A DNA stretch of 64,000 nucleotides. Source: a virus. The notes beneath the pieces are model-generated. The model saw only the letters and a program-made list of their open reading frames with translations, did not search any database and was not told the origin of the DNA. Shown here in pieces: positions 29,309 through 57,205 of this stretch. The position numbers were made by a program, and so were the translations under genes. Within the stretch, counting starts at the first letter, position 1. Every line of letters starts with the position of its first letter. Where the stretch lies: the IMG/VR virus record IMGVR_UViG_3300027763_000034, positions 1 to 64,000 of that record; one strand, written 5' to 3'.

Positions 29309-30898
29309 TTATTTGACTTTTGGACCGTCGCCCTTTGGATTTCTAGCTTCTCCGCTTTTATCTGGGGCATTTGCGGATCTTTGCTGATCTCGCTTTTTAT
29401 TGCCCGTCGACTTTGCTTTTTGATCGGCTACTTGCTGGGGCTTTAAATCCACCATTTCGTCTCCGCCTTCAACAGTTGTCATATTCTTTCTAAGACGAAC
29501 TTCGTTAGGGGTAATAACCTGCATTCTCAAATAAATTTCATCAATACGGCTTTGAGTTTCCTCATCAGTAAGACTTAATTCGTTAAACTTTAATTGCACA
29601 ACATCTGTCTTTTCTGCAATTAAATAATTCAATTTCTTTTCAAGTCTATCTTGTGATGGACGGCAAACCTGCTCTTTAAATGTCTTATCAGCATCCCTGG
29701 CAGCGGCTAAATTGATTCCTTCTGGAATACCAATTTTGCTAATTGGAACACGATGAGCTAACAGAATTTCATCTCTATTAGACTTACGATAGATATTAAA
29801 TGAGGACTCTTGTTCTCCTGCTTCAATTGGCTCCATCTTAAATTCAGTTTTTGAATCTGGAGTGTCTGCTGGAAGTGGGATATAAAGAGATCTATGATTC
29901 TTTCCCTTTAATCCGACCTGGAAAAATTCAAGAAGTTTTCTTTCTGATTCTGGGGAAAGCTTTGCTCCCTTTACTGTAATAATATATCTTGGGACCGCCT
30001 TATTTTCAAAGTAGTCTAAGTTATATCTACCAGCAAATTCGTTTCCTGCCAGGGCTTGCTGTGCTGCAATAATATCTGGTACTCCGTAGTAGTTATTCAT
30101 TGGAGTGTATTTCTTTAAATGAATAATCTCATTTGGTCTATCTTCTTGACCAGCAATTGGACTTGGAGTTTCAAGATCACCAAAGTTGCGGAAGTAAACT
30201 GCCTTTCCATAAAGTAGCTGAATAAATCCGTCACGGAATCTACGTACACGCATCGTTTTAGCTGGTATATGGCCTATATAGCCTATATCTCCAGCAGTGG
30301 TACGTCCTATCTCTATGTACCCGTTTCCAGTCGCCTCAAGGTCTGTGTAGGCTTTTATAAGGGTCTCTGTAAATGATTCTTCTTCATTGCAATCATCTAG
30401 CCATTTGTCTAGCTGAGTTTTAATTCTATCAATTTTTGAACGAGCTCTATCTGCCTGTTTTTGATCAGTTATAGCATCCATTGCATCTTTTGCTTTAGAT
30501 GTTTCTGTAAACATATATCCTAGGCCAACAATATTTGAAACCTTAGCATTGATGGCTGCATAGTTATAAGTAGAGACTTCATAAATTTTTGAAAGGTATT
30601 CTAAGTTATATGTTGGCTCTACGAGATCAAATAATGCATATCCGCTAATTGCTTGCTGAAGAAGATTCTGTTGTGTGCCTACGCCAGATGTTCCAACAAA
30701 TGCTTTTGAAAAATCACGATTAATTTTACGTTTAAAATTTGTTCCAAGGCCTCTTAATTTTTTAATTTCTTCTAGACCTATTTTAAATGGATCTTCTGAC
30801 TCTTCTGCTTTTTGAAAATGAAACCAGTCAGATGTATTTGAAATATCTATTGTATTTGATGAATTGTCATCTTCTAAAAATTCTATGTTGCGTGTCAT
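29309..30898 (-). CDS. portal protein
   Basis: DLEATGNGYIEI.R, EIIHLK...YYGVP, YFENKAVP, ILLAHRVP, ITPNEVR. Confidence 0.93.
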   Translation of the reverse strand: MTRNIEFLEDDNSSNTIDISNTSDWFHFQKAEESEDPFKIGLEEIKKLRGLGTNFKRKINRDFSKAFVGTSGVGTQQNLLQQAISGYALFDLVEPTYNLEYLSKIYEVSTYNYAAINAKVSNIVGLGYMFTETSKAKDAMDAITDQKQADRARSKIDRIKTQLDKWLDDCNEEESFTETLIKAYTDLEATGNGYIEIGRTTAGDIGYIGHIPAKTMRVRRFRDGFIQLLYGKAVYFRNFGDLETPSPIAGQEDRPNEIIHLKKYTPMNNYYGVPDIIAAQQALAGNEFAGRYNLDYFENKAVPRYIITVKGAKLSPESERKLLEFFQVGLKGKNHRSLYIPLPADTPDSKTEFKMEPIEAGEQESSFNIYRKSNRDEILLAHRVPISKIGIPEGINLAAARDADKTFKEQVCRPSQDRLEKKLNYLIAEKTDVVQLKFNELSLTDEETQSRIDEIYLRMQVITPNEVRLRKNMTTVEGGDEMVDLKPQQVADQKAKSTGNKKRDQQRSANAPDKSGEARNPKGDGPKVK

Positions 30899-31291: not shown

Positions 31292-33121
31292 CTAAATGGT
31301 TATATTTGAACCAGCTAATTCAATAGAATAAATAGAGTAGGGCAATGAGTCATTACCAGATGCAGACTCTGATATCGATAGTCCTTCTGACCCAACTGAG
31401 TTAGACCAGTTGCCAATATAATAATTATAATGGTTTGTTATTTGGCTTAAAGTTAAGGCTGTTGGATATATGGCAATATTATTATAGTTTGATCCTAGGC
31501 CGTACGACGTGCCAGCAACATTTTGATTAATTTTAATTAAGCCAGAAGTAACGCTTGAAAGAACTAAGACTACGTGATGTGGGAACCCTACTGTAAAGTA
31601 ACTTGAGCAGTTTGTTTGGGAAGTCACATCTTTCCCATTTACGTATACACTTGTAATCCCACTCTTATTTATGGTGCCGTCTGTGAGCCATTCAAATATT
31701 TTTGATCCATTTGAAAATAAAACATTTTTGCCCGATCCTGGGGTATATATCATTTCAATAGACCTAGAGGGTGATGCTGCTTCTATATTGAAACCTCCAG
31801 ATTCATGCATTGATAATCCATTATATCTGCTATATGAAAGTATTCTTTCGTTATACCTAGACAAATCATAGTCTTGGTCTGAGTATATTCTGTCTCCAGA
31901 GTTATCTGCATAGTAGTCCATATTATTAAAAAAATCAATTGAAACGGACTCTATTTTTGGAATATCAAATGATGTATCGGATGAGGACATTGTTGTTCTT
32001 ACATAAACACGTTCATATGTAGTTAAATTATTTTTTGTAAAATAAGGCAATGATTTATTATTGTAACAAGTTTGCCATCCAGATAATCCGTCTAAACTTA
32101 TTTCAAATAATATATTTTCAAAGTCTGGTTCATACTTTAGTTGTGAACTGTTTATTCCAATTCCAGATGGAACAATTATCTCTTGTGTAAAATTAAAACT
32201 GGCTGGGGATGCGGTGTCAGTTTTAGCAAATGTAACATAGTCATGATCTATAGATAGAACTGCATCTCCATTAATTAGATCTGACCATTTAATTGCAGAT
32301 GGGTAGTAGTATTGTTTTACTGGCATTATTTTTGAATGATTCAATGTAAATAAAACTCCACCGTCTGGTTCTACTATCTGTAGGTGATTCAGCTCGTATG
32401 AGCCAGCAGTGTAATGATTTTGTATTTTACTTTCAGAAAGAGAATATCTGTAGAATGCAACACAATCAATTACAAATGGTTCAGATTCATTAGAAGGACC
32501 ACTCATAAATGAAACTGTTAGGTTGCTAAACGGGTACGGCTCGGAAATAGATTTAGTTGATTTACTTACTCCATTAACATATAATATAATTGAAGATCCA
32601 TTGTATACGGCAGAAATGTAAGAAGCGGATGTTTTTTCTATTTTGGCAACTGCAACCGACGAACCTATTTTAAATAAAACATTTCCATTTTTATAAGTTA
32701 AGCCAATTAAATTTGTTGTGTCAAATGCTAAAGGTATTTCATTGGTGGATGTTTGTGGCGGTTTAAACCATAAGTCTATAGAAAATGGATTATTTTTGTA
32801 TGTTGATGTTGCCATTCCTGGAGTTATGTATATAATTTTTGTATCTGAATTCATTTTTGTTCCAGCTATCGATCCAGGAACTAATGGCATTAATACTGCA
32901 TTTGATGAGTTAAACGATACTCCATTATTACTATTTCCAGAATAATCATATATTACCGACCCTCCGAGATTGGCATAAGAAATACCATTATCTCTTAAAT
33001 CAGCGTATGTAGCATATTGTGTTTTAAGGGCATCATATGAAACTGTGGTGCCAGATATTACTTCATCTAATAAATAAAATGATGTTGGGTGGTCATTTAA
33101 GACTACGCTTTTGTATGACAT
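31292..33121 (-). CDS. LamG/concanavalin A-like virion protein
   Basis: YDYSGNSNNG, FSIDLWFKP, LYVNG, ID.VAFYRYSLS...IQNHY; second LamG-like unit at the C-terminus. Confidence 0.75.
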   Translation of the reverse strand: MSYKSVVLNDHPTSFYLLDEVISGTTVSYDALKTQYATYADLRDNGISYANLGGSVIYDYSGNSNNGVSFNSSNAVLMPLVPGSIAGTKMNSDTKIIYITPGMATSTYKNNPFSIDLWFKPPQTSTNEIPLAFDTTNLIGLTYKNGNVLFKIGSSVAVAKIEKTSASYISAVYNGSSIILYVNGVSKSTKSISEPYPFSNLTVSFMSGPSNESEPFVIDCVAFYRYSLSESKIQNHYTAGSYELNHLQIVEPDGGVLFTLNHSKIMPVKQYYYPSAIKWSDLINGDAVLSIDHDYVTFAKTDTASPASFNFTQEIIVPSGIGINSSQLKYEPDFENILFEISLDGLSGWQTCYNNKSLPYFTKNNLTTYERVYVRTTMSSSDTSFDIPKIESVSIDFFNNMDYYADNSGDRIYSDQDYDLSRYNERILSYSRYNGLSMHESGGFNIEAASPSRSIEMIYTPGSGKNVLFSNGSKIFEWLTDGTINKSGITSVYVNGKDVTSQTNCSSYFTVGFPHHVVLVLSSVTSGLIKINQNVAGTSYGLGSNYNNIAIYPTALTLSQITNHYNYYIGNWSNSVGSEGLSISESASGNDSLPYSIYSIELAGSNITI

Positions 33122-33128
33122 CCCAAAC

Positions 33129-34232
33129 CTACTTTTCTTCTAGTGATTTTACTCTTGCTGTAAGTTCTTGTACCGCTTTAATTAATGGAGAAATAAATTC
33201 TTCGTATCTTAATGCTTGTTGTCCTTCTGCATCATTCACATCAGAAATTACCCAGCCGCCGAAGTCAGCAATATTGACTTCATCTAAGACAGACTTTACC
33301 TCTTGTGCAATTAATCCGTAATGTGTTCTATCTCCACCAATTTTATTATATTTAACTGGGTTTAATTTATTAATAAAATTTAATCCAAGGTCAGATGTCA
33401 ATATATTTTCTTTTGTTCTTTCATCTGATATAACAGTTGCTGCTGAGTTTAAATATATGTTTTTCCATCCTCTAGTTACGTTATCTGTTCCAGAGTTAAT
33501 TGGACCAAGCAAACCTAAAGTAAATGTATTTGTTGATAGTGGATACCAGGCAGAGTTGACTCCAGTTGTAGATGTTGCTGTTGTTTGTAGCGCAATTCTT
33601 GTTGCAATTGGATCAATAACAGCATTTGATCCTGCTGCGCCAGTTGCGCCAGTTGCACCAGTTGCGCCAGTATCTCCACGAGGAATTGTAAAATTTAAAA
33701 TAACATTGCTAGATGTTCCAGTATTTGTAACAATAGCGTTTGTTCCTGCTGCACCTGTAGTTACTGGGCTAGCAATAGTAATTGTTGCTGCTGCATCACC
33801 TTTTGGACCAGTTGCTCCAGTTGCTCCAGTTGCTCCAGTTTCTCCAGTTGGTAAAACTAAATTTAAAACTTGAGATGGAGATGTGCCAGTAATTGTTGCA
33901 GAAGCTAGTGCGCCAGATACAACTGTTCCAATTGTTAAAACATTTGATGGACCAGGGCCACCAATTACTCCATCTTGACCTTTTGGAATATTAAATGTTA
34001 AAGATTGTGATGGAGATGTTCCGCTAATAGTTACCGAAGCATTTTGACCAGCATTTATTGTATTTGTTGAAGCAATGGTTAAAACGTTTGAAGGGCCTGT
34101 TGCTCCTTGGGGTCCAGGATGAGCAGCAATATATGTAGCAATATCATTACCTAAAATACCAAGATCTCTAGGTACATCGGGAGAATCCGAGTAACTTGGG
34201 AAGTGCCATCCATTAACGCCTGTAGTTGCCAT
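33129..34232 (-). CDS. collagen-like fibre with C-terminal intramolecular chaperone (peptidase S74)
   Basis: G-X-Y runs ([13 protein letters not shown]); SDERTKENI...L.PV.Y...GLIAQEV...LIKAVQEL. Confidence 0.85.
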   Translation of the reverse strand: MATTGVNGWHFPSYSDSPDVPRDLGILGNDIATYIAAHPGPQGATGPSNVLTIASTNTINAGQNASVTISGTSPSQSLTFNIPKGQDGVIGGPGPSNVLTIGTVVSGALASATITGTSPSQVLNLVLPTGETGATGATGATGPKGDAAATITIASPVTTGAAGTNAIVTNTGTSSNVILNFTIPRGDTGATGATGATGAAGSNAVIDPIATRIALQTTATSTTGVNSAWYPLSTNTFTLGLLGPINSGTDNVTRGWKNIYLNSAATVISDERTKENILTSDLGLNFINKLNPVKYNKIGGDRTHYGLIAQEVKSVLDEVNIADFGGWVISDVNDAEGQQALRYEEFISPLIKAVQELTARVKSLEEK

Positions 34233-34239
34233 TTTTTAA

Positions 34240-34911
34240 TTATACCATTAAGCCTTTATACACAGAAAGGTGTGAGGTATATCTTTTGCCAGACAAAACT
34301 TCATTTACCTTATGAAGATACGGCTCTTGACTTGGAAATATTATTAGGCTGCCCTCTTGTGGCTTTATTGACAAGCCTTGGTTTGGAAACTCTATCTCGC
34401 CACCCTCATAGTCATCATTCAGATAAGCTATCATTGAGAATGCTAGTGTTGTATGTCCGTCATAGTTATCACAATGTGGCCCCATGCCAGAACCTGCTGC
34501 CCATTCTCTAATTGGAATTTCTCCCATTGGAAGTATATAATTTTTTCCGTCAATATTTCTTGACTTTAAATAATTATCAAGACACATTTCAAATGCCATT
34601 TTTAAACTATTACTTATGTAAAGAATTTTTTGATCTAGTCTGGAACCAGAATTATTTTCTTTTATGCTATTAGTTAAAACATTTTTATTTTTTCCGTATA
34701 CAACATTGACATCATCACTTGCTGTCCATGGGCTCCACTGTGTTATTTTTGAATAACTATCTTGGCTTTCATCGACCTCATTGATAAAATCAACTAGTTC
34801 TTTTGGATAGCTTAAAACATTTTTAAAATGCCATATGCCATCTTCTAAAGCATTTGGTATGAACATGTGATACATGTCATTTGGATTAAAATCTTTTTTA
34901 TCTTCTATCAT
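34240..34911 (-). CDS. 2OG-Fe(II) oxygenase, prolyl 4-hydroxylase-like
   Basis: HCD...YLNDDYEGGEI.F...H.V..V.SGKRY. Confidence 0.9.
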   Translation of the reverse strand: MIEDKKDFNPNDMYHMFIPNALEDGIWHFKNVLSYPKELVDFINEVDESQDSYSKITQWSPWTASDDVNVVYGKNKNVLTNSIKENNSGSRLDQKILYISNSLKMAFEMCLDNYLKSRNIDGKNYILPMGEIPIREWAAGSGMGPHCDNYDGHTTLAFSMIAYLNDDYEGGEIEFPNQGLSIKPQEGSLIIFPSQEPYLHKVNEVLSGKRYTSHLSVYKGLMV

Positions 34912-35669
34912 TAGATATTCTCTACTTCTGAGGCTGGGACTGGTGCTCCGTACGGAGTTAGTCTTAATCCTTTGTCACGGATTTCTTTCCATTCTTCTTG
35001 CTCGCCTTTTTGATGTGCTCTGACTTTAGCTAACTCGTCTGCCCATTCATCTCTAATTTCTTGAGGATAATCAGACTCTTCTCTATCGTCCCAAAAAGAT
35101 CCAAGCGTATATCTTGGCGCTCCTTTTACTACGGTAACCTCATGCATGTTTTTATGACCACCATGAAATATTAAAAATGACCCAGCTTTTGGAATAACTT
35201 CAAGTGGGGTTTTTCCATGTCTTGCATCAAACTTTAATGTTCCGCCTTCAAAATCATCATTTAAATATAAAAAACCAGCATATCTACTTCGTGTAAACGC
35301 ACCCATTTTTCCTTCTGAGTCGCTGTTGTCTGAGTGCTTTGGTGCAAAAGCTCCTGGAAGCCATCTTTGCACATGAAAGCTAATCTGAGACATGTCTTCG
35401 AAAGACTTATTTGCTACATCTGCAGCAGCCTGTCTAAATCTATTTTTAAGATCAGTAAACCATGTAGGGCTTAAATTAAATTCAGCAAGCACTGCTTCAC
35501 CATCAAATGGGTATCTGGCAGAGTATGACTCATAAAAAGATATTCCCTTCCAGTAGTCATCGTCAGTCTCAGCAAGTTTTTCTAGCAGCCCAATGACAGA
35601 TTTGCATTCTTCTTTTGATATAAAATCTTCATAGAGATCTATATCTTCTGTTAGTTTAGTAAGCTTCAT
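34911..35669 (-). CDS. 2OG-Fe(II) oxygenase, prolyl 4-hydroxylase-like
   Basis: HSD...YLNDDFEGG...HEVTVVKGAPRYT. Confidence 0.9.
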   Translation of the reverse strand: MKLTKLTEDIDLYEDFISKEECKSVIGLLEKLAETDDDYWKGISFYESYSARYPFDGEAVLAEFNLSPTWFTDLKNRFRQAAADVANKSFEDMSQISFHVQRWLPGAFAPKHSDNSDSEGKMGAFTRSRYAGFLYLNDDFEGGTLKFDARHGKTPLEVIPKAGSFLIFHGGHKNMHEVTVVKGAPRYTLGSFWDDREESDYPQEIRDEWADELAKVRAHQKGEQEEWKEIRDKGLRLTPYGAPVPASEVENI

Positions 35670-36490
35670 TACATACCCCCTGGCCCAGATTTATCTCCAG
35701 ATAGATCATCATATTTGGTCGGAACCCCATCCTGTAAGTATCTCATGTTTCTAGGATTGTCGTGCTTTAATCTTTCAAATTCTTTTTTCATCCAATTAGC
35801 GGCTCCTAATTTCTTTTGATTTTCGAGCCATTCTGGGTGTCCGTCGTAAGGGTACATAACAAAATTTCTTACAAAGAATTTTTCTCCATTATATATTGTT
35901 TTTACGCCATGAAAATATGGTTCATCTGATGGAAAGACAAGGATGTCTCCAGCCTGTGGTTTATGATTTACCCTATCCCCATTAACAAAAAATTCAATAT
36001 CTCCGCCGTCGTAATTATCATTTATATACATTGTGCAGGTTAATTGAAATTTAGATCCTGGCATGTCTCTTTCTGAAATAATAAAATCTGTGTGATATTG
36101 CATAGTCATTTTATTATCTAGGACATCAACTTGATCCGTATACTTTGAAAAAGAACATCCGCTAAAATGCCAATTAGGTTTTAATTCAATGCCGTGCCTA
36201 TTAATATAATCAAGCAATACTGCATCATAGGCGGACTGAATTTGATCCACAAAATCTTTTTCTTCTATAAACATTGGGTCGGACTTTTGAGTATCATCTA
36301 CTTCTAATGAATTTTTTGCTTGGGAATAGGTGCCAAAATGTGCCCAAGGGTCCCAAGTCTTTAAAAGGTACTTGCCTTCAGATGTCTGCTCTGATTTTTT
36401 CATTGTCTCATACAGGGCCTGCGGATCTTTCAAAACATTTCTGTACACATCCACTTTTGGATATAGCTCTACGTATTCTAAATTTGTCAT
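35669..36490 (-). CDS. 2OG-Fe(II) oxygenase, prolyl 4-hydroxylase-like
   Basis: HTD...YINDNYDGG...HGVKTIYNGEKF; ATGA-coupled start at 36490. Confidence 0.88.
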   Translation of the reverse strand: MTNLEYVELYPKVDVYRNVLKDPQALYETMKKSEQTSEGKYLLKTWDPWAHFGTYSQAKNSLEVDDTQKSDPMFIEEKDFVDQIQSAYDAVLLDYINRHGIELKPNWHFSGCSFSKYTDQVDVLDNKMTMQYHTDFIISERDMPGSKFQLTCTMYINDNYDGGDIEFFVNGDRVNHKPQAGDILVFPSDEPYFHGVKTIYNGEKFFVRNFVMYPYDGHPEWLENQKKLGAANWMKKEFERLKHDNPRNMRYLQDGVPTKYDDLSGDKSGPGGM

Positions 36491-37164
36491 GGCTGTCTTT
36501 CTCCTGTGTGTTTCATTATCGTCCAAAAAAATGGCGAAGTAAATCTATTTCCTGCTGTTACTGGTCTTACCCCGTGTGTGTAGTGCATGTCTCCTGGGAA
36601 GAAATATGCTGCGCCTGCTTTTGGCTTAAATTCAATTCCGTGCTGTGGGAAGTATAGCTCTCCGCCTTCATAGTCATCATTAAAATAAAATAGTCCTGCT
36701 AAGTCATACCATGGAAAATCATTTGGTCTTCCCTTTTCTATTCCAGTGTGAAACTCTTTGTCTGCGTGTGGTTCTTGTCTTGCCCCAACTGGCCATCTAA
36801 CAATTGCTGGGCCTGTCTCTTGAGCATCAACAGAAAAAAATTTATCCACTTCAATTTTAAGTCTTGCTATCATTGAGTTAATTAATTCTAATATTGTTGG
36901 GTCAGACTCCATTAAAGAGTTGTGAGTGCAAACCCTATCTTTCCATATATTTGCATCATACAAAACTAATCCGTCTTCATCAACATGAGTTTCGGTTTGA
37001 TCCCAAACTTTATTGTTTAAAGCAAAACTTATAAGCCTTTGCCTTTCATCTTCAGTCAAAAAATTTTCTAGCTCTATAATATTATCTGAGGATGAGCCAA
37101 AGAAACCTGAAGGCGTTATTGACTTCGGTGCATATAGCTGTATGTCTTTATTTGCAATTTTCAT
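36487..37164 (-). CDS. 2OG-Fe(II) oxygenase, prolyl 4-hydroxylase-like
   Basis: HAD...YFNDDYEGGEL...HGVRPVTAGNRF. Confidence 0.9.
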   Translation of the reverse strand: MKIANKDIQLYAPKSITPSGFFGSSSDNIIELENFLTEDERQRLISFALNNKVWDQTETHVDEDGLVLYDANIWKDRVCTHNSLMESDPTILELINSMIARLKIEVDKFFSVDAQETGPAIVRWPVGARQEPHADKEFHTGIEKGRPNDFPWYDLAGLFYFNDDYEGGELYFPQHGIEFKPKAGAAYFFPGDMHYTHGVRPVTAGNRFTSPFFWTIMKHTGERQP

Positions 37165-37208
37165 TAGTTCTCTTTCTGTTAATACTACAATATAATTTTA
37201 CCATGCTA

Positions 37209-37913
37209 TTAATCTTTATTATCAATGACTTTTAATCTTATTGCTTTTACTTGGTGCTTCCCTAAAGATACTCCAAGGTGGTCTGTAGCATTACGGTAAA
37301 AATTAGTCCATTTCCCAACCGCATTTGATTCCGACCCAGCTTTGCTATATTCTTTAGAATCAAATGTTCTTTCTGGCATTTTTGAAGAGTCAAAAAACTC
37401 TATTTCGGAATCCTGCAAAGCTTCAAGGTTTATTGGCATTATTGAAAATATGGGCGTGTTAGCTTTTATTGTTATTTCAACATTTGGCCTAGTTACTCGG
37501 ATCGCACAAGATAAATCTCCACTATAAAAAGAAGAACTCATTATTGTTGTAAATGGCTCATACCCGTCTACAAAATTATTAGGGACTGGCATAGTGAGGA
37601 GGCTGTGGTTTTCATCTGTTTTAAATGTTATGCCAGTGTTAAAACTTACCGTAGCATTTGATCTTTCGGCATAAGCATATTTATCTCCAGATAATATTTT
37701 TACGTGATCTGGTGTGGAATCAGATATTCCGTCCCATATAAAAGTTATATCTTCTGGGAATGAGATAGACCAGCCCATTTGATTTGGTAATCCAACTGGA
37801 AAACATTTATATGCGTGAGCTTCCCAAGTTTCATCCATCCAATCTCTTTTTACTGATAAGGGGAGGACTGTGGCTGAAATATCTTTTGCTCTATAGGCTT
37901 TGAGTTTTACCAT
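37209..37913 (-). CDS. DUF6065-like protein
   Basis: RDWMDET...HAYKCFP...NQMGW...WDG signature. Confidence 0.7.
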   Translation of the reverse strand: MVKLKAYRAKDISATVLPLSVKRDWMDETWEAHAYKCFPVGLPNQMGWSISFPEDITFIWDGISDSTPDHVKILSGDKYAYAERSNATVSFNTGITFKTDENHSLLTMPVPNNFVDGYEPFTTIMSSSFYSGDLSCAIRVTRPNVEITIKANTPIFSIMPINLEALQDSEIEFFDSSKMPERTFDSKEYSKAGSESNAVGKWTNFYRNATDHLGVSLGKHQVKAIRLKVIDNKD

Positions 37914-38565
37914 CGTTTAATCTTTTTTCTACAAGTGCACGATACTCATCATTATGAGTGTTATCGTTATAATCTAGCATTGTAACTATAGAATATTTTT
38001 TGCCTTCTTCTACTGGCATTGCAACATGAGAATAGATATATGTGGACGGGAATATGTATAAGTCACCAGCTTTTGGCTTAATTTTTAAGTCTAATTTTGG
38101 GAACCATAGCTCTCCGCCAGTGTAATCATCATTTGGATACGCTACCAGAGACACCGTTGCTGTATAAGAAAACCCGTGGTCGGCATGCTCTTGAAAATGT
38201 TGTCCTGGACCATAAGAAATAAAATTCATTACTTCCCAAAAATCCATTCTTACGCTATGAAATGAACAATAGTCTTCTGCTGCTGGCCCCTGTGTATCTT
38301 TGGCATCTTGCCATATATCATTTATTCGTCTATCAAAATCATTTCTTATTGTTGGCACTGGGCCTATCTTTACATCTTGGCAATCTCTATAGCTTGGCCT
38401 TGTTTCATCATAGCCAACTGTTGCGCCTCTCCAGTTGTACTGCCCATTGCTTTCATTAACAACAGAGACAAGCCTTTCCATTAAATTTAGTTCTGGCTTA
38501 ACTACGTCTCTATATACCCATAACCCAGGAAATAGGATTTCTTTGCTTGACCAAGTTTGATTCAT
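37891..38565 (-). CDS. 2OG-Fe(II) oxygenase, prolyl 4-hydroxylase-like
   Basis: Y.PGQHF..HAD...YPNDDYTGGEL.F...FPS...SH.A.PV..GKKYSIV. Confidence 0.9.
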   Translation of the reverse strand: MNQTWSSKEILFPGLWVYRDVVKPELNLMERLVSVVNESNGQYNWRGATVGYDETRPSYRDCQDVKIGPVPTIRNDFDRRINDIWQDAKDTQGPAAEDYCSFHSVRMDFWEVMNFISYGPGQHFQEHADHGFSYTATVSLVAYPNDDYTGGELWFPKLDLKIKPKAGDLYIFPSTYIYSHVAMPVEEGKKYSIVTMLDYNDNTHNDEYRALVEKRLNDGKTQSL

Positions 38566-38578
38566 TTTTCTCTTTCTC

Positions 38579-39157
38579 TCATATATAGTTTATCATATCA
38601 TCTGGTAATATGTCAATAATTAAATGCACTCTATCAAAATCAGTTGGGTTAGAAACGGAGTGTGGCATTTGATTATTAATTTCATACCATCCGCCCTCTT
38701 CCATATGTATTGTATTGTCCATTACAGTAAATGTTATTAAATCTTTTGTTATTATGGGTACATGAACTCTTCTAGAATAGTGAAGCAGGGCTCCACCATC
38801 AACATGCTTTGGTATATAAGAATTAGAATTTAATTTAACAAATTCACACCTTATTATTTTGCCAGAATAGTATGACTCTAAATCAATAAAAATTTTTTTA
38901 AGCTCTTGATCTGATAGACTATTTTTAAGAAGATTTACATAATTGGTTTCAACTGGGTCGCCAACAATCCAATCGTAATCTGTTTCACAAATTCTAAACA
39001 TCTGTGTGCTTTTGTGAGTATACCCTTTTTCTTGCCTGCTTTGATCAATCAGCCATTCATTTGAAAAATTAGAAATTTCATCTTTAATATGATTTATTTC
39101 AAAATGACCTAGGTGAAGTATTGACCACTCAGTATTCTTTTTTAATCTTTTGTACAT
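38579..39157 (-). CDS. aspartyl/asparaginyl/prolyl beta-hydroxylase family 2OG oxygenase
   Basis: IPKHVD...RVHVPIIT...G..YEINN..PHSVSN....RVHLIID. Confidence 0.88.
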   Translation of the reverse strand: MYKRLKKNTEWSILHLGHFEINHIKDEISNFSNEWLIDQSRQEKGYTHKSTQMFRICETDYDWIVGDPVETNYVNLLKNSLSDQELKKIFIDLESYYSGKIIRCEFVKLNSNSYIPKHVDGGALLHYSRRVHVPIITKDLITFTVMDNTIHMEEGGWYEINNQMPHSVSNPTDFDRVHLIIDILPDDMINYI

Positions 39158-39836
39158 ATTCGTATACCTCCATGTCCAATAAATTAATTTCTTCTATTCT
39201 ATTTATATGTCTTTTATCAAATTTAATTCCTATATCATAAGAGGAATTTGCTTTGTCGGAATGTTTAAATGTTGAAAATCCAAATTGTTTTAATAAGCTT
39301 TTATTTAAATCTATTTTAAATAAATCTAGTTCTTCTAGCGTATAAGCTTTCATTTTTTCAAGACTTGAAATTACATTTTTTATATCTAATTTATATCCTT
39401 CTAAATACCAACCGCTGCTAACTGTATTTTGAAATTGTAATATATCCTGATTAAATTTTTCTATATTTAATTTACCAGTTAAAAATTTTGACTGCAGGTT
39501 GGATTGCATTTCGCATTCTTCCCCATAAAGCCATCTATCTAATTTTTCTTCAGCTTCTTTTCCCGCTCTTATTGGTCCTGTTGTATATTTAAAATAGCTT
39601 ATAAATCTTTCTACTGGGTCTCTAACTATTGTAAAAATTTCTGGACTGTCCATATAATCTAAAGGCATTAAGCCAAAATGACCACCAACAAACCTACTTT
39701 TTTTTATTTTTTCTACATCTATTTTATTCCTATTGGATATACAATGCTCTACCCCATTTGATATCAAATGGGGTATTACATTATTCTTTATGTATATACC
39801 AGATGTTCTTGGAATATGCAGATGGTATATTGACAC
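39129..39836 (-). CDS. sulfotransferase family protein
   Basis: 5'-PSB motif HLHIPRTSG, 3'-PB motif RDPVERFISYF, C-terminal N.LD..VY. Confidence 0.8.
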   Translation of the reverse strand: MSIYHLHIPRTSGIYIKNNVIPHLISNGVEHCISNRNKIDVEKIKKSRFVGGHFGLMPLDYMDSPEIFTIVRDPVERFISYFKYTTGPIRAGKEAEEKLDRWLYGEECEMQSNLQSKFLTGKLNIEKFNQDILQFQNTVSSGWYLEGYKLDIKNVISSLEKMKAYTLEELDLFKIDLNKSLLKQFGFSTFKHSDKANSSYDIGIKFDKRHINRIEEINLLDMEVYEYVQKIKKEY

Positions 39837-41128
39837 TAAAAAGCTTTACGGTTGTGTACTACTAGATCTCCCGCAATTAAAATATCATTTGGAGAAGCAT
39901 CAAATTCATAAACGGTTCTTTCTTCATTTATAATTTTTGTTGATTCTACTACTACCTCTTCAAAAATATTTTCATTATTTTTTACAAATATTGAATCTCC
40001 TGGTTCAAGAATTCCTGTTGTGCTAAAGAAATATGTGTCATTTTTCTTTGCAAGAATTGTTTGTTCTAGTGAGAATCTCTTAGAAGAGTCATCATTAATA
40101 ATCATAGTTGCATCTTTTATAGAAGGCTTTACGGCTCTAATTTCAGTTTTTACTAGATGTATATTATTAATTGAATCTGTAGACCATGTATAAGGATCGA
40201 TTTCAAATTCATCAAGCAATCCATCCCATGTTGCTGACCATACTTGGTCACCTACTTGAATTTCTTTTGCTTTTTTAAATTCTACTGTGTCATTTGGACC
40301 CACTGTCATTACAAGAGTGTCTTGATCAATGCAATAGAACCCTGGTGGGGCAAAGAACCCTGGTGGGGCAAAGAACCCTGGTGGGGCAAAGAACCCTGGT
40401 GGGGCAAAGAACCCTGGTGGGGCAAAGAATGATGGTGGTGCGAAGAACCCTGGTGGGGCAAAGAACCCTGGTGGGGCGAAGAATGATGGTGGTGCGAAGA
40501 ACCCTGGTGGGGCAAAGAAGCTTGGCGGGAAGAACGGTGCCAATGTTGTAACAGAATTTGATGATGCTGAATATGAAGAGTCTCCGTTACCATTTGTAGC
40601 AAGTACTTGATATGACTGTGCAGTGTTTGCTGTTTCTGGTACAGTGTGGCTTACTCCAGCTATTGAATATATTGGGCCATCGCTTGACTTAAGCTTGTAT
40701 CCAGTTATTGCTTTTCCTCCATCAGCTGGTGCAGACCAGGTAACATAGTCTTGGTTAATCTGTGCTGTAGCTGTTGGTGCTCCTGGGGTAGAAGGAACGG
40801 TTGTTGCGGTAACTGAGGCTGAAGCGGTTGATGGCTCGGAATCTCCAAATGTATTTTTTGCAACAACTGTATAGGTGTAAGGTGTATTAGAAAGAAGACC
40901 AGTGACTGTAATAGGAGAAGAAGTTCCTGTTCCAGTTCGACCTCCTGGGCTAGCTGTTACAACATACTCTGTTGCTGCGTATGGCCCATCTGGTGTAAAC
41001 GATACTGTTGCTGCTCCATCATTAAATGGACGGTTGGTTCCAACATCTGTTGCGCTTACATTGATTGGCTTAAATGGCATCAGGAAGTCATTCGAGCCCT
41101 GGCTCATTCTACCTACTTGTTTTGACAT
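39836..41128 (-). CDS. FN3-FN3-(FFAPP[G/S])10-Hint domain protein
   Basis: Two FN3 domains (TGLLSNTPYTYTVVAKN.FGDS; WSAPADGG.AITGY), a Pro/Phe repeat, and a Hint/intein-like domain from C(40333) to VVHN(39851) followed by RKAF. Confidence 0.85.
   Translation of the reverse strand: MSKQVGRMSQGSNDFLMPFKPINVSATDVGTNRPFNDGAATVSFTPDGPYAATEYVVTASPGGRTGTGTSSPITVTGLLSNTPYTYTVVAKNTFGDSEPSTASASVTATTVPSTPGAPTATAQINQDYVTWSAPADGGKAITGYKLKSSDGPIYSIAGVSHTVPETANTAQSYQVLATNGNGDSSYSASSNSVTTLAPFFPPSFFAPPGFFAPPSFFAPPGFFAPPGFFAPPSFFAPPGFFAPPGFFAPPGFFAPPGFFAPPGFYCIDQDTLVMTVGPNDTVEFKKAKEIQVGDQVWSATWDGLLDEFEIDPYTWSTDSINNIHLVKTEIRAVKPSIKDATMIINDDSSKRFSLEQTILAKKNDTYFFSTTGILEPGDSIFVKNNENIFEEVVVESTKIINEERTVYEFDASPNDILIAGDLVVHNRKAF
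40337..40516 (-). repeat. 10 tandem 18-bp coding repeats (FFAPPG/FFAPPS)
   Basis: + strand units GAACCCTGGTGGGGC(A/G)AA x8 and GAATGATGGTGGTGCGAA x2, with no spacers. Confidence 0.95.
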
Positions 41129-41151
41129 GGTTATTCTCCTTTAATTTTTGA

Positions 41152-43785
41152 TTAAGCTGTTAGGTCTCCGAAGATTAACCATCCAGTTGAAATTTTTAGT
41201 GCAGTTACAACTGAATTGTTAGCTCTGAATTTGCGTCCTGGTGTTCCAATTACTCCATTTGTATCTGCAAACGAAGCTCCTGTTCCAGTTTTTTGCCAGA
41301 AGTCAATTGATTGACCAGTTGAATATCCTGTTGCAGGAAGTGTTACAACAACTGCTCCTGATAGTGGAATAAACTTATCTTGTTCTCCAGCTCCAAGTGT
41401 TACAGAAGAAACAACTTCTGTTGCAATTGTTGTGATAGATGGTACACCTGCCCGTGCCTGTGTGCCATCAGAGAATACGATTCCTGCTGCTGGTAGAGTT
41501 ACTGTTCCAGTAAATGTTGGAGAAGCAAGTGGGGCAAATCCTGCAATGCTTGCTCCTGCTGGTATTGTAACTGTTCCTGTGAATGTTGGGGAAGCAATAG
41601 GTGACTTTGTTGCAATTGAGTTTGTAACTGTTGTTGAGAATGATGCGTCATTTCCAAGTGCAGATGCTAACTCGTTAAGAGTATCAAGTGCTGCTGGTGA
41701 TGCTGCTACTAGATTTGAAACAGCTGTTCCTACGAATGCTGTAGTTGCAACCTGTGTAGTATTTGTACCAGCTGCTGCTGTTGGTGCAGTTGGTGTACCA
41801 GTAAGTGCTGGTGAAGCAAGCGGCGCCCGTAGGGCAATTGATGCAGCTTGTGCTGTTGAAACTGGCTTATCTGCATCTGCAGTGTTATCAACAGATCCAA
41901 GTCCTACCATTGTCTTTGTAATTCCAGACACAGTACCTGTAAATGTTGGTGAAGCAAGATTTGCTTTAAGCGCTAATCCTGAATTAACAGTTGCAGTTAA
42001 TGCAAGTGCTGAGGTGTCTGCAATTCCATGAATATTTGTTGTATCTGCTTCGTGTGATGCAAGTGATGCAGATGAAGCTTTTGTATTTACAGATGTTTGT
42101 AATGTTGCTGCAGCAGTATTTATTGCTGTAACATCTGACTGCAATCCTGTAATTGCATTTTCTGCTGTATTCAAGTCTGTTGTCAGAGTTGAAGTATCGG
42201 TAAACAATGTTGCTATTGATGAGTCGTAGCTTGTAACCTTTGCAGCTAATGCATTTGATACAGTATTAATCTGGTACTGTATTCCAGAAGTAACTCCATT
42301 TACATATCCAAGCTCTGTTGCGCTTACATCACCAATTGTGGTGTCTGTTGGAAGGACAACTGATCCTGTGAATGTTGGAGAAATCTTTGGTGCTTTTCCT
42401 GCAAGATCGCCAGTCAAATTTGCAATCTTTGATTGTGCAATTTCTGCATAATCATTAACGTCTGCGTTGACTATTGTGCCATCTAAAATCATTCCAGCTG
42501 TTACTGTTCCAGATGGAAGAGTTACTGTACCTGTGAATGTCGGTGATGCTTTTGGAGCATATGTTCCTTCTGCTACAGTTGTAGAAAGCTTTGCATCAAT
42601 TTGAGACTGGATACCGCTTGTTACACCTGCTAAACGCTGTATTTCTGCATTTACTACAGAACCAACTCTTAATGAATCTGCGACGAGGCCGCCAACTTCA
42701 AGTGAGTCTTTTGTGTATGTTGTAAAGTCAACAACTGTTGTAGGCTCTGCTGTTACGCCAGAGAATAGTTTCCATACGCCATCTGAGGCATCTCTTACAA
42801 GGCCTGAGTGCTGGTATGTACCGTTATTGAATGCTCCAACTACACCAAGATCAAGAACGTTTGACTGGTTGTTTTCACCAATATAAATCATTGGATCATC
42901 AATTGTAACGTTAGTTGAATTTACAGAAGTTGTTGTTCCATTAACTGTTAGGTTTCCTGAAACTGTAAGCGCTCCAAGAGTTGCTGTGTCTGCCTGTACT
43001 TGATCTACTTGAACAAGAGGTCCAGTAAATTTAGTTGTTGCTGTGATTGTTGGGGACAATGAAAGTATGATGTCTAGGTTATCTGTTGCATCTGTCTTTA
43101 CTATTCCACCTTGTGCTCTAATTGCTGCAGAAACAACTTCTTTGCTTGTTGCGTTATCCCATGTTGAGCTAACTCCTCGTCCAGAAGTAACTGTTGAATC
43201 AATTAATGATGTAACTGTATTTGTAATATCTAGCTCTGAAGCTGGAATTTTACCTGAGTTATTTAATGAAGCAACTCCGCCAGCATTTCCTCTGTCTGCT
43301 AAAGGAATGTAGTCTAGGTCTACTGTATTTCCAAGTGCTGATACAGCTGAATCTACGTAGCCTTTGTTTGCTATGATTGATGTGTCAACAGAAACTGTTA
43401 GCTGGTTTGTTCCGTCATTGTATGACTTAGAAATACCATTTCCTGCTACAAGAGCTGTATTAACTGCATCCTGTGCCATTTCTGTAAAATATGAATCTGC
43501 TACTGCTATTGTAATAGTATTTGCGCCATCGTTGTATGTCTTTGTGAGACCATCTCCTACAACAAGGGCAGCGTTAATTGCATCTTGGGAAATTTCACCA
43601 ATTGCTACGTCTGAATTATTTGCATATGCAAGGGCAGTCCATGTAGAAGATCCGTTACCGAATTTAAATAGGTTTGTGTCTGACTCGACACCCATTTCTC
43701 CTGCTGCCAAAATTGGATTTACTGAGGTCCACTGTGAAGCGGTTCCTCTTCTTACTTGAATTCTTACTGTTGACATATTTGCCAC
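41152..43785 (-). CDS. long fibre protein with Mtd-N/hyaluronidase-type N-terminal domain
   Basis: IQVRRGTASQWTSVNPILAAGEMGVESDT..FKFGNG..W..L.Y; AP.ASPTFTG repeats; APAALDTLNELA motif. Confidence 0.8.
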   Translation of the reverse strand: MANMSTVRIQVRRGTASQWTSVNPILAAGEMGVESDTNLFKFGNGSSTWTALAYANNSDVAIGEISQDAINAALVVGDGLTKTYNDGANTITIAVADSYFTEMAQDAVNTALVAGNGISKSYNDGTNQLTVSVDTSIIANKGYVDSAVSALGNTVDLDYIPLADRGNAGGVASLNNSGKIPASELDITNTVTSLIDSTVTSGRGVSSTWDNATSKEVVSAAIRAQGGIVKTDATDNLDIILSLSPTITATTKFTGPLVQVDQVQADTATLGALTVSGNLTVNGTTTSVNSTNVTIDDPMIYIGENNQSNVLDLGVVGAFNNGTYQHSGLVRDASDGVWKLFSGVTAEPTTVVDFTTYTKDSLEVGGLVADSLRVGSVVNAEIQRLAGVTSGIQSQIDAKLSTTVAEGTYAPKASPTFTGTVTLPSGTVTAGMILDGTIVNADVNDYAEIAQSKIANLTGDLAGKAPKISPTFTGSVVLPTDTTIGDVSATELGYVNGVTSGIQYQINTVSNALAAKVTSYDSSIATLFTDTSTLTTDLNTAENAITGLQSDVTAINTAAATLQTSVNTKASSASLASHEADTTNIHGIADTSALALTATVNSGLALKANLASPTFTGTVSGITKTMVGLGSVDNTADADKPVSTAQAASIALRAPLASPALTGTPTAPTAAAGTNTTQVATTAFVGTAVSNLVAASPAALDTLNELASALGNDASFSTTVTNSIATKSPIASPTFTGTVTIPAGASIAGFAPLASPTFTGTVTLPAAGIVFSDGTQARAGVPSITTIATEVVSSVTLGAGEQDKFIPLSGAVVVTLPATGYSTGQSIDFWQKTGTGASFADTNGVIGTPGRKFRANNSVVTALKISTGWLIFGDLTA

Positions 43786-43837
43786 CCCTTATTTAGACTT
43801 ATTTGGTAATTATAGCATTACAATAATTCCAAAACAA

Positions 43838-44209
43838 TTAGCTAATTGTTCCAGAATCAAAGGTCATGCTGTATGTATCTGTGGAATGATTTCCACCATC
43901 CGCAAATTTTGTAGCTGTAGTATTTACTCCATTTGCAAAAACTGTATATACTGGCTGGCCGTCATAATCTATTGCCAGTCCTATATCCATAAATGTTAAA
44001 GCTCCTAGATCTTCTGCCGCATCTGTAAGGAGGGCAATTTCCTTCCAAGCACCATTAATCTGGATCTTTAATCTTCCAGTTGATGAGTCGAAGGCAAGGG
44101 GGGTTGAATTTAAGACTAAGTTGTCTACATTTACTGCTGCATCAAATGTTGCAGGTCCTGCTACGTTAAGGCCATTTTTAACCTTGAAGTTTTTATTTAC
44201 TATTGCCAT
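43838..44209 (-). CDS. virion fibre-associated protein
   Basis: Starts MAIVNKNFKVKNGL, nearly identical to the N-terminus of the upstream gene. Confidence 0.6.
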   Translation of the reverse strand: MAIVNKNFKVKNGLNVAGPATFDAAVNVDNLVLNSTPLAFDSSTGRLKIQINGAWKEIALLTDAAEDLGALTFMDIGLAIDYDGQPVYTVFANGVNTTATKFADGGNHSTDTYSMTFDSGTIS

Positions 44210-48654: not shown

Positions 48655-50826
48655 CTAATATTGTATATAAATATCTCCAGCAACCATGCCTGTAGTAGGA
48701 AGTGTGCCAGTATTATTATAGAATGTTTTTGCTCCTGCTGATATTGTTGTTGAGCCTCCAAGTGCTACTGCCGTTCCATTTATAGTAATAGATGAATTTG
48801 CTAACTTATTGTTGGCTATTGAGCCAGCAAGCATTGTATTTGTTACAGTTGCAGAATCTAAAAGTGTAACTGCTGTTCCAGATATTTTAGATTTATCAAT
48901 TGCTGCTGAAGCACTGATATCTGAATTAACAATAGTTCCATCAGCAATCATTGTTGATGTTATTGTTCCAGAAGGAGCAGAAAATGTTCCAGTAAATGAT
49001 GCATTATTAATTGGTGCATAGGCTGCTAAATTAAGAGTTGCCCACGATGGAGATGTACCATCAGTCATTAAATATTTTCCAGCATTGTTAAGTTGTGCTG
49101 GGAGAATTGAAATACCAGATACTGTTGCACCAGAAAAATCTACTGTTCCAGTAAATACTGGTGAAATCTTTGGTGCATAAGTTGATGATGCTGTTGATAT
49201 AGATAATTTAGTATCTAATGCGGATTGTGTAGCAGTTGATATTGGTTTTGATTCATCAGTTGTATTATCTACATTACCAAGACCAATCATTGTTTTTGTA
49301 ATACCATTTACTGTTCCAGTAAATGTTGGGGAAGCAATTGGTGCATATGTAGATGCGGCAGTTGCAGAAGATAATTTAGTTCCAACTAATGTTGTTAATG
49401 CTGTCCCTGCAGATTGATCTGTTGATATGTAATCTGCTATTTCTTTAAGTGTATCAAATGAAGATGGTGCTCCATTTACAACATTTGCTATAGCTGTGGT
49501 TATGTCAGATGTTCTTGCAATTGTTGAAGGTATAACTGTATCTAGTATTTTTCCACTAGATAATCCAATTTTTGCATATCCTCCTGGCAGATCAGCATCT
49601 GCTTCAGAAACATATGCATCTAATGTATTACCAAGTCCTGCTGATGTTAAGAAATGTGAATTTGCATATGCTAATAAATCATCGTTAGCTTGATTTAAAT
49701 TAACATATACATCTGTAAATCTTTGGTTAGTAGCTGAGATTGCTCTTGCATCTGTGAAATAAAGATTATTTGAGCCTTCTGTTATTGCATCTGTTGTCCC
49801 AGAAAATGTTGAACTTCCTGAACCAGCTGGACCCTGTGGACCAGTTGCGCCAGTTAATCCTCGTTCACCTTGTGGGCCTGTTGCGCCAGTGTCGCCTTTT
49901 AATCCCTGTGGACCAGTTGCACCAGTTGCGCCAGTGTCGCCTTTTAATCCCTGTGGACCAGTTGCGCCAGTTGCGCCAGTTGCCCCAGTAGCACCAGTGT
50001 CACCTCTTAATCCTTGTGGGCCTACGTCTCCACGAGGAATTGTAAAATTAAATAACGGTGCAGTTGGTGTTCCAGTATTTGTAATAGAAACAGATGTTCC
50101 TGGGTTTCCAGTTGAAACTGTTCCAAGCGTAATTGTAGATGATGCTCCACCTGAAGACAGTCCAGAAACAGCTGCATTAATTGCAGTATTCCTATTTGTA
50201 ATTTCAGTTGATATTGCTGTATTTATTGCAGTATTTCTATTAGATATTTCTAATGCAATTTTATTATCTGTATAAACATTTGCTGATGAGGTTGCTAATG
50301 TTACTGCTGCTTCGTCTTTAGAATCTGCTGAGGTTCCTGCCGCTGCTAAAGTTTCTATTTTTACTGCAGAAGTTTTGCTACTTGCATCGGCTGCTGCTGT
50401 TGCAATAGCTTCTGATTTGGCAGCAGATATAGCTGTATTTCTATTTGTAACTTCCGTTGCAATTGCTGCAGATATTGATGATGCTACTGCATCTATTGCT
50501 CTTTGGTTTGTAAAATATTTATTGCTACCTTCTGATACAGAGGTTGTTGATAGCGTTGCAATTGCTGTTGCTAAATCTGCAGATACGGACATTGAGTCTG
50601 GAAGTTGTGAGGTGGGTATTTTACCAAGAGCATTTAGTGTTGCTACTCCATTGGCCTCTCCAGCTTTAAATGCATAGGAAGTTGTTGCATTCCATCTTGA
50701 GCCATTACCAATTTTAAACTTTAGGCTGTCTGTCTCAATTCCTAGTTCACCTGATAATAGTATTGGGTTGTTGGACACCCAGTTTGCTGCTGTGTCTCTT
50801 CTAAGTTGTATTCTTAATGATGCCAT
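48655..50826 (-). CDS. collagen-containing fibre protein with Mtd-N-type N-terminus
   Basis: [36 protein letters not shown]; G-X-Y run of about 23 triplets. Confidence 0.8.
49822..50035 (-). repeat. collagen-like Gly-X-Y repeat
   Basis: Repeated [15 protein letters not shown] units. Confidence 0.85.
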
Positions 50827-50827
50827 T

Positions 50828-51286
50828 TTATGAACCTCCTGCATCAACAATTATACCATCGTTGTCTGCAGAACTTCCTCCTTCTAAAACTTCGTCTTGT
50901 ACTACTGTAACGCTGCCTTCTGGGTTTCCGCCATCAAGCAATGTTTGGTTTTCAAATGTTCCGCCTTGGTTTGATGTTGAAGGACTTTGTCCGTCGTATC
51001 CAATTACAAGTGGTAATACTAGATCGGGAGAATCTGAAGTATTTGTTTCCTTAAATGTAATCTTATTCTGAACATCAATTGTATGAACATTTCCATCAAA
51101 TGTGTGAGTATGCATATAAAATGGTGTTGGGTCTGTGCTCGGCGGGGTAAGCTCTACCCAAACCATACCATTGTATATTCTTAAATTCTTACTTACTACA
51201 TTGAAGTATATATCTCCAACAGTGGCTATGTCGGGGTTCTCCATAGAAGTAAGAAGATTAAGTGCAACCTTCATTTGTCTGGACAT
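50828..51286 (-). CDS. virion structural protein (hypothetical)
   Basis: GDIYFN......IYNG..W; acidic DGG repeats. Confidence 0.6.
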
Positions 51287-57156: not shown

Positions 57157-57205
57157 AATACCATAGCCGTGATACAATTAGGTTATATTATCAATGGAGG
57201 CAAAA

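Follow-up and report, generated by a model that had tools for sequence, protein, structure and literature searches.

A Pro-Pro repeat protein with a Hint domain and its neighbouring prolyl hydroxylase-like genes in a freshwater actinophage lineage

We analysed a nine-gene cassette at positions 34240-41128 of the first 64 kb (hereafter the window) of the virus record IMGVR_UViG_3300027763_000034, a genome of 116,155 bp that was rated complete by CheckV. The cassette is headed by the gene of a protein termed REP, which carries FN3-type domains, an aromatic-proline hexapeptide repeat and a C-terminal Hint domain, and it continues with genes for a sulfotransferase (ST), an AspH-family 2-oxoglutarate (2OG) oxygenase, a DUF6065 protein and five oxygenases resembling prolyl 4-hydroxylases (P4H_a to P4H_e). 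With a probability of about 0.5, REP is a Hint-processed, FN3-bearing virion protein whose Pro-Pro repeat tail is hydroxylated by the P4H-like/DUF6065 battery; we infer both the identity of the substrate and every modification. The REP cassette is conserved and is absent from the literature searched, in which no paper naming DUF6065, FFAPPG, GFSPFG or FFSPPG was found and in which the publications on freshwater actinophages that were consulted mention neither oxygenases nor sulfotransferases.

Architecture of the cassette and of REP

A first-pass annotation of this DNA, made from the letters alone, had described a tightly packed minus-strand run of nine genes with named families. Open reading frames (ORFs) and Pfam searches confirmed this description, with all nine genes where that annotation had placed them. 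Neighbouring genes overlap by 1, 29, 23, 40, 1 and 1 nt at six junctions and are separated by 13 and 44 nt at the other two. In the order of transcription, the features are:

39836..41128, minus strand: REP, 430 aa; conserved N-terminal ~30 aa, FN3, FN3-like domain, FFPPS plus ten FFAPP[G/S] units, 165-aa Hint domain
40331..40519, minus strand: tandem DNA repeat coding the FFAPP[G/S] units; 18-nt period, 10.4 copies, 87% matches, 54-nt higher-order period
39129..39836, minus strand: ST, 235 aa; PF03567 (Sulfotransfer_2), 6e-6, 27 bits against a 22-bit cut-off
38579..39157, minus strand: AspH-family 2OG oxygenase, 192 aa; PF05118 (Asp_Arg_Hydrox), 4.4e-11, 43.3 bits against a 22.6-bit cut-off
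37891..38565, minus strand: P4H_a, 224 aa; PF13640, 1.6e-12; H127, D129, H180 and K190 invariant
37209..37913, minus strand: DUF6065, 234 aa; PF19541, 2e-26, 93.3 bits against a 26.6-bit cut-off
36487..37164, minus strand: P4H_b, 225 aa; PF13640, 4.6e-9; HxD...H...R conserved
35669..36526, minus strand: P4H_c, 285 aa, TTG start (the true start may be later); PF13640, 3.2e-9; HxD...H...K conserved
34911..35669, minus strand: P4H_d, 252 aa; PF13640, 5.9e-10
34240..34911, minus strand: P4H_e, 223 aa; PF13640, 3.3e-12

The FN3-FN3-(FFAPP[G/S])10-Hint architecture proposed earlier for REP was borne out, the first FN3 domain being detected by Pfam (fn3, 1.8e-10) and the second being only FN3-like at a sub-threshold score (E 3.5e-4, 21 bits against a 25-bit cut-off). 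The repeat starts with one FFPPS and goes on with ten FFAPP[G/S] units. Across 556 repeat units of REP and its orthologues, the F-F and P-P pairs never vary, A, S or G stands at position 3, and Gly accounts for only 48% of the residues at position 6, where R, N, Q and L are also seen. The FFxPPx repeat of the window's clade is free of Asp and Asn, and the F-F-x-P-P-x unit lacks the Gly at every third residue that marks a collagen-like triple helix. REP is probably a fibre-associated or decoration-type protein located on the virion.

The C-terminal 165 residues of REP begin at the Cys in ...PPGFY|CIDQDT and end with VVHN-RKAF. Neither Pfam nor single-sequence PDB searches of REP detected a Hint domain in this region, for which a profile was needed: a 30-sequence profile matched the bacterial intein-like (BIL) domain 2lwy at 9e-10, as well as mini-inteins. 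The AlphaFold model, with a predicted local distance difference test score (pLDDT) of 93.5, was matched by Foldseek to BIL2, inteins and Hedgehog with template modelling scores of 0.66-0.80. By profile and by model, the domain thus has a Hint fold and is closest to bacterial intein-like domains. Among 106 aligned orthologues the first residue is Cys in 86, the window protein included, and Ser in 20, and a terminal His-Asn is common among 117 distinct orthologous Hint domains. The Cys/Ser/Thr at +1 and the C-extein of a canonical intein are missing, as R-K-A-F and then the stop codon come after HN in the window protein, and most orthologues have K, G, R or L at +1. With one to four residues at most behind HN, the domain would cleave or transfer and is not expected to act as a splicing intein. 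Indirect evidence for autocleavage at its N-terminal junction comes from natural REP orthologues, some of which are Hint-less and terminate with ...PPGFWD, at the expected cleavage point. Because they stop right after the repeat, it is likely that the FN3-repeat protein is made as a whole. With 145 representatives among 1.8 billion proteins, these Hint domains form a small family, mostly viral, whose members are always C-terminal and always found behind aromatic/Pro/Gly repeats (FGFSPF, YTFTP, FFPPYFP).

These observations can be assembled into a tentative mechanism. The cassette would belong to the late virion module of a freshwater, whiB-encoding actinophage lineage, and REP, with its two FN3-type domains, would have the conserved N-terminal region as a peg and the very hydrophobic (FFxPPx)n, rich in aromatic residues and proline, as a tail. 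A co-transcribed battery of five oxygenases resembling prolyl 4- or prolyl 3-hydroxylases (P4H/P3H), together with DUF6065, would act ahead of assembly or in its course to hydroxylate the invariant Pro-Pro and perhaps further residues. This may alter the solubility, the polyproline-II stiffness or the glycosylation capacity of the tail. The BIL-type Hint domain would generate the mature C-terminus of REP, with the Cys (Ser in some relatives) forming a (thio)ester at ...GFY|C. Hydrolysis would then release the domain, or REP would possibly be passed on to another nucleophile.

The enzyme battery and its covariation with the repeat

All five P4H-like genes pass the PF13640 (2OG-FeII_Oxy_3) model with 37.5-48.6 bits against a 27-bit cut-off, and every paralogue forms a separate orthologue set. 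According to the first-pass annotation, the six oxygenases of the cassette, including the AspH-like one, keep HxD...H and a basic 2OG-binding residue. The metal-binding triad was found in all sets, being conserved in at least 95% of the members of each oxygenase's orthologue set (in the AspH-like protein, 17 orthologues share HxD and the distal His); the basic residue is likewise conserved at 95% or more in the sets of P4H_a to P4H_d and is less uniform in that of P4H_e. Comparison with solved structures upheld the proposed likeness to prolyl hydroxylases, as the oxygenases resemble enzymes that hydroxylate peptidyl proline or lysine, namely B. anthracis P4H, human P3H1, LH3 and PBCV-1 P4H. 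In particular, P4H_a is closest to B. anthracis P4H (3itq, 4e-5), followed by LH3 and PBCV-1 P4H; P4H_b is related to PiuC, P3H1 and B. anthracis P4H; P4H_d is closest to human prolyl 3-hydroxylase 1 (P3H1; 8k0e, 4e-5); and P4H_e is related to PKHD/PiuC-type hydroxylases and B. anthracis P4H, with PBCV-1 P4H also among its relatives. P4H_c has no clear solved relative, and its nearest paralogue in the genome lies at 110704-111537. Because these similarities are weak (E 4e-5 or worse) and confined to the catalytic core, "peptidyl hydroxylase-like" is the most that the sequences suggest.

In the model of DUF6065 (pLDDT 91), a beta-barrel like that of trimeric dUTPases is extended by helices at the C-terminus, and the model superposes on dUTPase structures with Z 9.8-10.1 and a root-mean-square deviation of 2.6-3.0 over 109-117 residues (Foldseek 1.6e-4). 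Judged by this model, DUF6065 is dUTPase-like in fold rather than an oxygenase. By eye only, the five dUTPase catalytic motifs, including the C-terminal Gly-rich motif V, were unrecognised in the DUF6065 consensus, and the Pfam dUTPase model matched a single relative (E 0.055). A contig scan for DUF6065 returned two contigs of metagenome-assembled genomes only, both of phage-like DNA.

The ST and AspH-like genes are an optional add-on pair in the window's sub-clade. The ST matches phrog_3347 (Gal-3-O-sulfotransferase, 5e-6) in the PHROGs, and its binding motifs for the sulfate donor 3'-phosphoadenosine 5'-phosphosulfate (5'-PSB and 3'-PB), PRTSG and R-x-P-x-x-R-x-x-S (RDPxxRxxS), are conserved in 19 orthologues; a phmmer search against solved structures found no relative. 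By these family matches the ST belongs with carbohydrate-type sulfotransferases, and a glycan or Ser/Tyr is as likely an acceptor for the pair as hydroxyproline.

More than 200 relatives of REP were found in IMG/VR. A synteny survey covered the 80 related viral loci first fetched, in which REP identity goes down to ~35%, and members with FGFSPF-type repeats, used as queries, added ~100 further loci. In 80/80 loci the order was tail fibre, REP, [ST-AspH], P4H_a (1-2), DUF6065 (1-2), P4H_b-e, [collagen-S74 fibre], p609 and portal, with brackets marking genes that may be missing. The view of the cassette as a unit was strengthened by this result, as its genes form a conserved, co-oriented set in the virion-gene module.

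For the analysis of covariation, we used 83 distinct REP orthologues that lie behind a tail-fibre gene with at least 7 kb downstream, and genes were counted within 9 kb. Among the 40 orthologues of FFxPPx type, 5-9 P4H-like genes were present in 39/40 and 1-2 DUF6065 genes likewise in 39/40. Among the 43 of F(G/S)F(S/T)PF type, P4H-like genes numbered 0-2 in 43/43 and DUF6065 was missing from 42/43. The REP slot of the latter contains another, His-rich family, with 1-5 paralogues in 43/43 loci; none occurred in 33/39 loci of the Pro-Pro type, and one copy accompanies the P4H battery in a Pro-Pro sub-clade (L052, L058, L074, L075, L079). The hybrid locus L091, which has FGFSPTPPF repeats inside the window's clade, keeps ST-AspH, has lost P4H_a-d and DUF6065 and carries two copies of the His-rich family. 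In this neighbourhood survey, of the kind called for by the first-pass annotation, the P4H/DUF6065 battery tracks the Pro-Pro repeat across the 83 orthologues, as expected if the repeat is the substrate but equally if one DNA block is inherited. In addition, some relatives encode a second, unlinked protein of 850-1060 aa, located 6-9 kb upstream of REP and ending in an aromatic-proline repeat of the same kind (L038:1045-3816, L050:669-3770, L073:1556-4729, L077:2418-5045, L088:1884-4445, L142:3165-, L103:7835-10492). Most of these proteins have a Hint domain and several have Cys-rich segments, and the repeat type of the second repeat-plus-Hint protein agrees with that of REP in 13/14 genomes. 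The covariation fits enzymes matched to the repeat, but the sequences behind it represent only one to three evolutionary events.

The His-rich family comprises unannotated proteins of ~218 aa (e.g., L130:12119-13410, L135:13415-16222, L093:11331-12619, L091:5807-7155), in which H18, W-x-N, HDH, FHGYY, A-E-P, G-x-x-H (GHPH) and R-I-T are invariant. It matches phrog_2696 and has zero copies in the window's own genome. Searches of Pfam and the PDB gave no match, and hhalign comparison with the P4H families remained below 5% probability. A feature similarity to PF13759 (2OG-FeII_Oxy_5) in the ESM Atlas is a lead and not a finding.

Competing explanations and known systems

Several observations weigh against hydroxylation of the REP tail by the battery. 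Five anciently diverged paralogues for a single hexapeptide are unexplained. X-Pro-Gly as the recognition motif, put forward in the first-pass annotation, is not supported by the repeat, where Gly follows Pro-Pro in only 48% of the units. DUF6065 has the fold of a nucleotide enzyme, and its distant relatives occur in both locus types, including loci without the P4H battery. As to the Hint domain, the block B TxxH reads S-L-E-Q in the window protein, and the His is present in 45/117 orthologues, with Gln in 47/117 and Glu in 25/117. On the tree of REP N-terminal regions the repeat type changes twice, once on well-supported branches, so few changes that an independent-pairs test is without power and cannot reach significance, and co-inheritance of one recombination module with the repeat, the Hint domain and the downstream genes could explain the covariation. 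The scheme of hydroxylation followed by sulfation was not supported: the ST, itself of carbohydrate-type families, adjoins Pro-Pro-less repeats in phages without the hydroxylase battery (L117-L133, L146), so that hydroxylation by the battery is no prerequisite for sulfation. Nor are the enzymes exclusive to the repeat protein. The genome has 13 P4H-like genes, seven of them outside the cassette (a cluster at 78-81.5 kb and genes at 57.2, 106 and 110.7 kb), and a second DUF6065 (240 aa) lies one gene from a 277-aa P4H_c-like gene at genome 109703-111537, an independent occurrence that the first-pass annotation had itself counted against its proposal. Such enzymes clearly have other targets, and DUF6065 may work together with a P4H-like gene as a pair that the phage employs at two sites. 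Finally, an 896-aa protein encoded elsewhere in the genome, with a signal-peptide-like N-terminus and a (V/A)(V/E)EPP repeat, (EPPxx)n, with 22 Pro-Pro, is another possible prolyl hydroxylase substrate.

In the main rival explanation, the battery would be aimed at other targets, such as other virion proteins or envelope proteins or glycans of the host, the slot behind REP being an accessory-gene hot spot and the match with the repeat reflecting co-inheritance. We regard this as a doubtful but serious possibility. The slot is indeed variable: ST/AspH may be present or missing, P4H_a and DUF6065 occur once or twice, and some relatives have a class II ribonucleotide reductase there and others a different gene family. 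Moreover, 2OG oxygenases in multiple copies without an assigned role are common in aquatic phages (PMC3037559); the seven P4H-like genes elsewhere, the second Pro-Pro-rich protein, the one or two switches of repeat type and the carbohydrate-type ST families point in the same direction. Against it, the alternative gene sets swap exactly with the repeat chemistry, the hybrid L091 included, and the unlinked second repeat protein is concordant in 13/14 genomes. The fibre proteins tfib877, p513 and p123, which occur in both phage types, cannot account for the difference between them; because they are shared in this way, or optional as in the case of the S74 fibre directly downstream of the cassette, these four are less likely targets. 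Collagen-like fibres were also considered as the target and rejected, since they are optional where the battery is kept and carry Pro in the X position (G-P-Q) and not before Gly as in X-Pro-Gly.

An action of DUF6065 and the 2OG oxygenases on nucleotides, DNA or a small molecule, with a nucleotide-like substrate for both, would agree with the dUTPase-like fold (Z ~10) and with the site of the second DUF6065/P4H_c-like pair, which sits among RecA-like, RuvC-like and PD-(D/E)XK (exonuclease)-like genes at 107-113 kb; in other phages, moreover, nucleobases are known targets of 2OG oxygenases (TET/JBP and AlkB families). We consider it improbable, as the oxygenases of the cassette match PF13640 and structures of prolyl and lysyl hydroxylases rather than TET/JBP or AlkB, Tet_JBP having been seen once, weakly, in a 176-aa gene of a relative. 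The catalytic motifs that went unrecognised by eye in DUF6065, the presence of herpesvirus dUTPase-related proteins with non-enzymatic roles among its fold matches and the location of the cassette in the virion module argue in the same sense. The release of small peptides was a further proposal of the first-pass annotation, in which the repeat would be the multicore precursor of a ribosomally synthesised and post-translationally modified peptide (RiPP), tailored and then cut. Identical tandem units beside tailoring enzymes and a self-cleaving domain at the end of the repeat are reminiscent of such systems. Leader-like logic is missing, however: Pfam and PHROG searches of the cassette revealed no protease, recognition element or transporter, the supposed precursor gene encodes 430 aa, and its N-terminal part is a conserved FN3-type pair typical of virion decoration and not a leader. 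Furthermore, the Hint domain would cut once, at the end of the repeat, the Hint-less orthologues are plain FN3-repeat proteins ending after the repeat, and the same repeat-plus-Hint module terminates structural-looking proteins of 850-1060 aa in relatives. We therefore judge peptide release very improbable. A bolder extension of the hydroxylation reading holds that interchangeable batteries are matched to the chemistry of the repeat (P4H and DUF6065 to FFxPPx; the His-rich family, possibly an oxygenase, to FGFSPF) and that the heavily modified repeat, instead of merely being set free, is ligated through the Hint thioester to a molecule of the virion or the host envelope; we think this combination unlikely.

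Hydroxylation of a viral repeat protein by a virus-encoded enzyme is already known from chloroviruses and mimivirus, and it is plausible here. The chlorovirus Paramecium bursaria chlorella virus 1 (PBCV-1) likewise encodes a 2OG-Fe(II) peptidyl hydroxylase, the P4H A085R, and repeat proteins as possible substrates, of which the one in the virion has never been found. In mimivirus, the lysyl hydroxylase/glycosyltransferase L230 acts on viral collagen. Unlike these viruses, the window comes from a tailed phage, in whose lineage five to nine diverged paralogues lie in a row with AspH-like, ST and DUF6065 genes, and the candidate substrate is an aromatic-proline hexapeptide with a Hint domain instead of collagen or (PAPK)n. 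What appears unusual is thus the Hint domain, the battery of paralogues, the partner with a dUTPase fold and the alternative enzyme set. The likeness to collagen P4H and P3H lies in the A-P-P-G units, which give X-Pro-Gly and Pro-(Hyp)-Gly contexts, and in the nearest relatives of P4H_a (bacterial collagen-type P4H) and P4H_d (human P3H1). Nevertheless, the similarity is limited to the catalytic core (E ~4e-5), Gly follows Pro-Pro in under half of the units, and there is neither a Gly-X-Y periodicity nor a subunit like protein disulfide isomerase.

The Hint domain shares its fold, an N-terminal Cys/Ser, a C-terminal His-Asn and the lack of an endonuclease with BIL domains, Hedgehog-Hog and the BIL domains of Tetrahymena BUBL proteins. 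Like them, it also lacks Cys/Ser/Thr at +1 and stands at the C-terminus of a protein of secreted or variable structural type. As there is no endonuclease and no such residue at +1, cleavage or transfer would be expected rather than splicing. It differs from them in the Gln that replaces the block B His and in belonging to a small, mostly viral family behind aromatic/Pro/Gly repeats. Endosialidase-type S74 chaperones, one of which is encoded at 33129-34232, are also C-terminal self-removing domains on phage fibre-type proteins, but fold and chemistry are unrelated, S74 being a Ser-Lys protease that acts after trimerisation and the REP domain presumably using a Hint thioester. Marine cyanomyoviruses have several PF13640-type genes per genome with no function assigned (PMC3037559). 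There they are spread over the auxiliary genes and have been considered in connection with 2OG levels or DNA repair, whereas the present lineage keeps one such set at a fixed place of the virion module, beside a covarying candidate substrate.

Aquatic phage genomes are rich in 2OG-Fe(II) oxygenase genes, the substrates of which have been elusive for some twenty years (PMC3037559), and the cassette makes the question testable, with natural controls in the Pro-Pro-less relatives that have a different enzyme set, in the hybrid L091 and in the Hint-less orthologues. If the link between battery and repeat is true, it would reveal a new kind of post-translationally modified surface protein in phages of very abundant freshwater actinobacteria, functions for DUF6065 and for the unannotated His-rich family, and a new viral use of Hint domains. 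If ligation is true as well, a Hedgehog- or BUBL-like protein ligation would take place in a phage particle, and widespread phage 2OG oxygenases would have their first defined substrate.

Lineage and genomic surroundings

The virion module spans 26-51 kb, lies entirely on the minus strand and includes, besides the portal gene, those of the head protease, the major head protein and several fibre proteins; a 2723-aa ORF of tape-measure size is found further on. The cassette has the tail-fibre genes on one side and those of the portal, the protease and the major head protein on the other. By its head protease the virus is closest, among cultured phages, to Streptomyces phages (~44% identity), the GC content of the genome is 37%, and the stretch is present in lake and freshwater metagenomes of at least 10 studies. 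When the cassette, REP and DUF6065 were compared with 50,697 phage records by megablast and tblastn, no match was obtained. The whiB gene marks the virus as an actinophage. Because of this gene, the Streptomyces-phage-like head protease, the 37% GC and the lake origin, the host is very probably a low-GC freshwater actinobacterium.

Lake RNA (metatranscriptome) libraries of at least two studies contain contigs that agree with zero differences with pieces of REP, of the fibre gene upstream of it and of several enzyme genes in window 33000-44000. The contigs cover most of this stretch at 100% identity, ~38.9-39.6 kb being uncovered, and a single contig of 3228 nt bridges the fibre gene and REP. 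The contigs are compatible with transcription in nature, a reading limited by possible DNA carry-over, and they can neither rank the genes nor prove transcription. Scans for promoters and terminators gave no signal above shuffled expectation.

Other features of the window and of the rest of the genome are:

29309-30898, minus strand: portal protein, virion module
33129..34232, minus strand: collagen-like fibre protein with a C-terminal S74 self-cleaving chaperone; PF13884, 1.3e-12; directly downstream of the cassette
41152..43785, minus strand: tail-fibre protein tfib877, 877 aa; PHROG tail-fibre families; directly upstream of REP in every related locus
48655-50850: second collagen-like fibre protein, with G-A-T/G-P-Q triplets as in the 33129-34232 protein
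57194-58051, plus strand: weak P4H-like ORF, 285 aa; PF13640, 7.6e-4; P4H_e profile, 1.8e-16
59335-59410, minus strand: tRNA-Ile, anticodon TAT
Genome 76933-81557: second oxygenase cluster, two cupin/JmjC-looking ORFs (plus strand) followed by five P4H-like ORFs (minus strand)
Genome 90264-90437: WhiB-family gene, 1.5e-11
Genome 91567-94257, minus strand: the 896-aa (EPPxx)n protein
Genome 95053-95772, plus strand: second sulfotransferase-like ORF, ~1 kb from the (EPPxx)n gene

The S74 fibre is missing from many relatives that retain the enzyme battery. Within the second oxygenase cluster, a glutathione-peroxidase-like ORF (79736-80245) interrupts the five P4H-like genes, and there is no repeat protein nearby. 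A class II (B12-dependent) ribonucleotide reductase is encoded at window 53663-55597, 12 kb from the cassette. In relatives of FGFSPF type, the slot that separates REP from the portal gene contains the gene of a class II ribonucleotide reductase (L091:7368-9398, L093:12835-14865, L130:13642-15672), behind which comes the gene of a 176-aa 2OG oxygenase.

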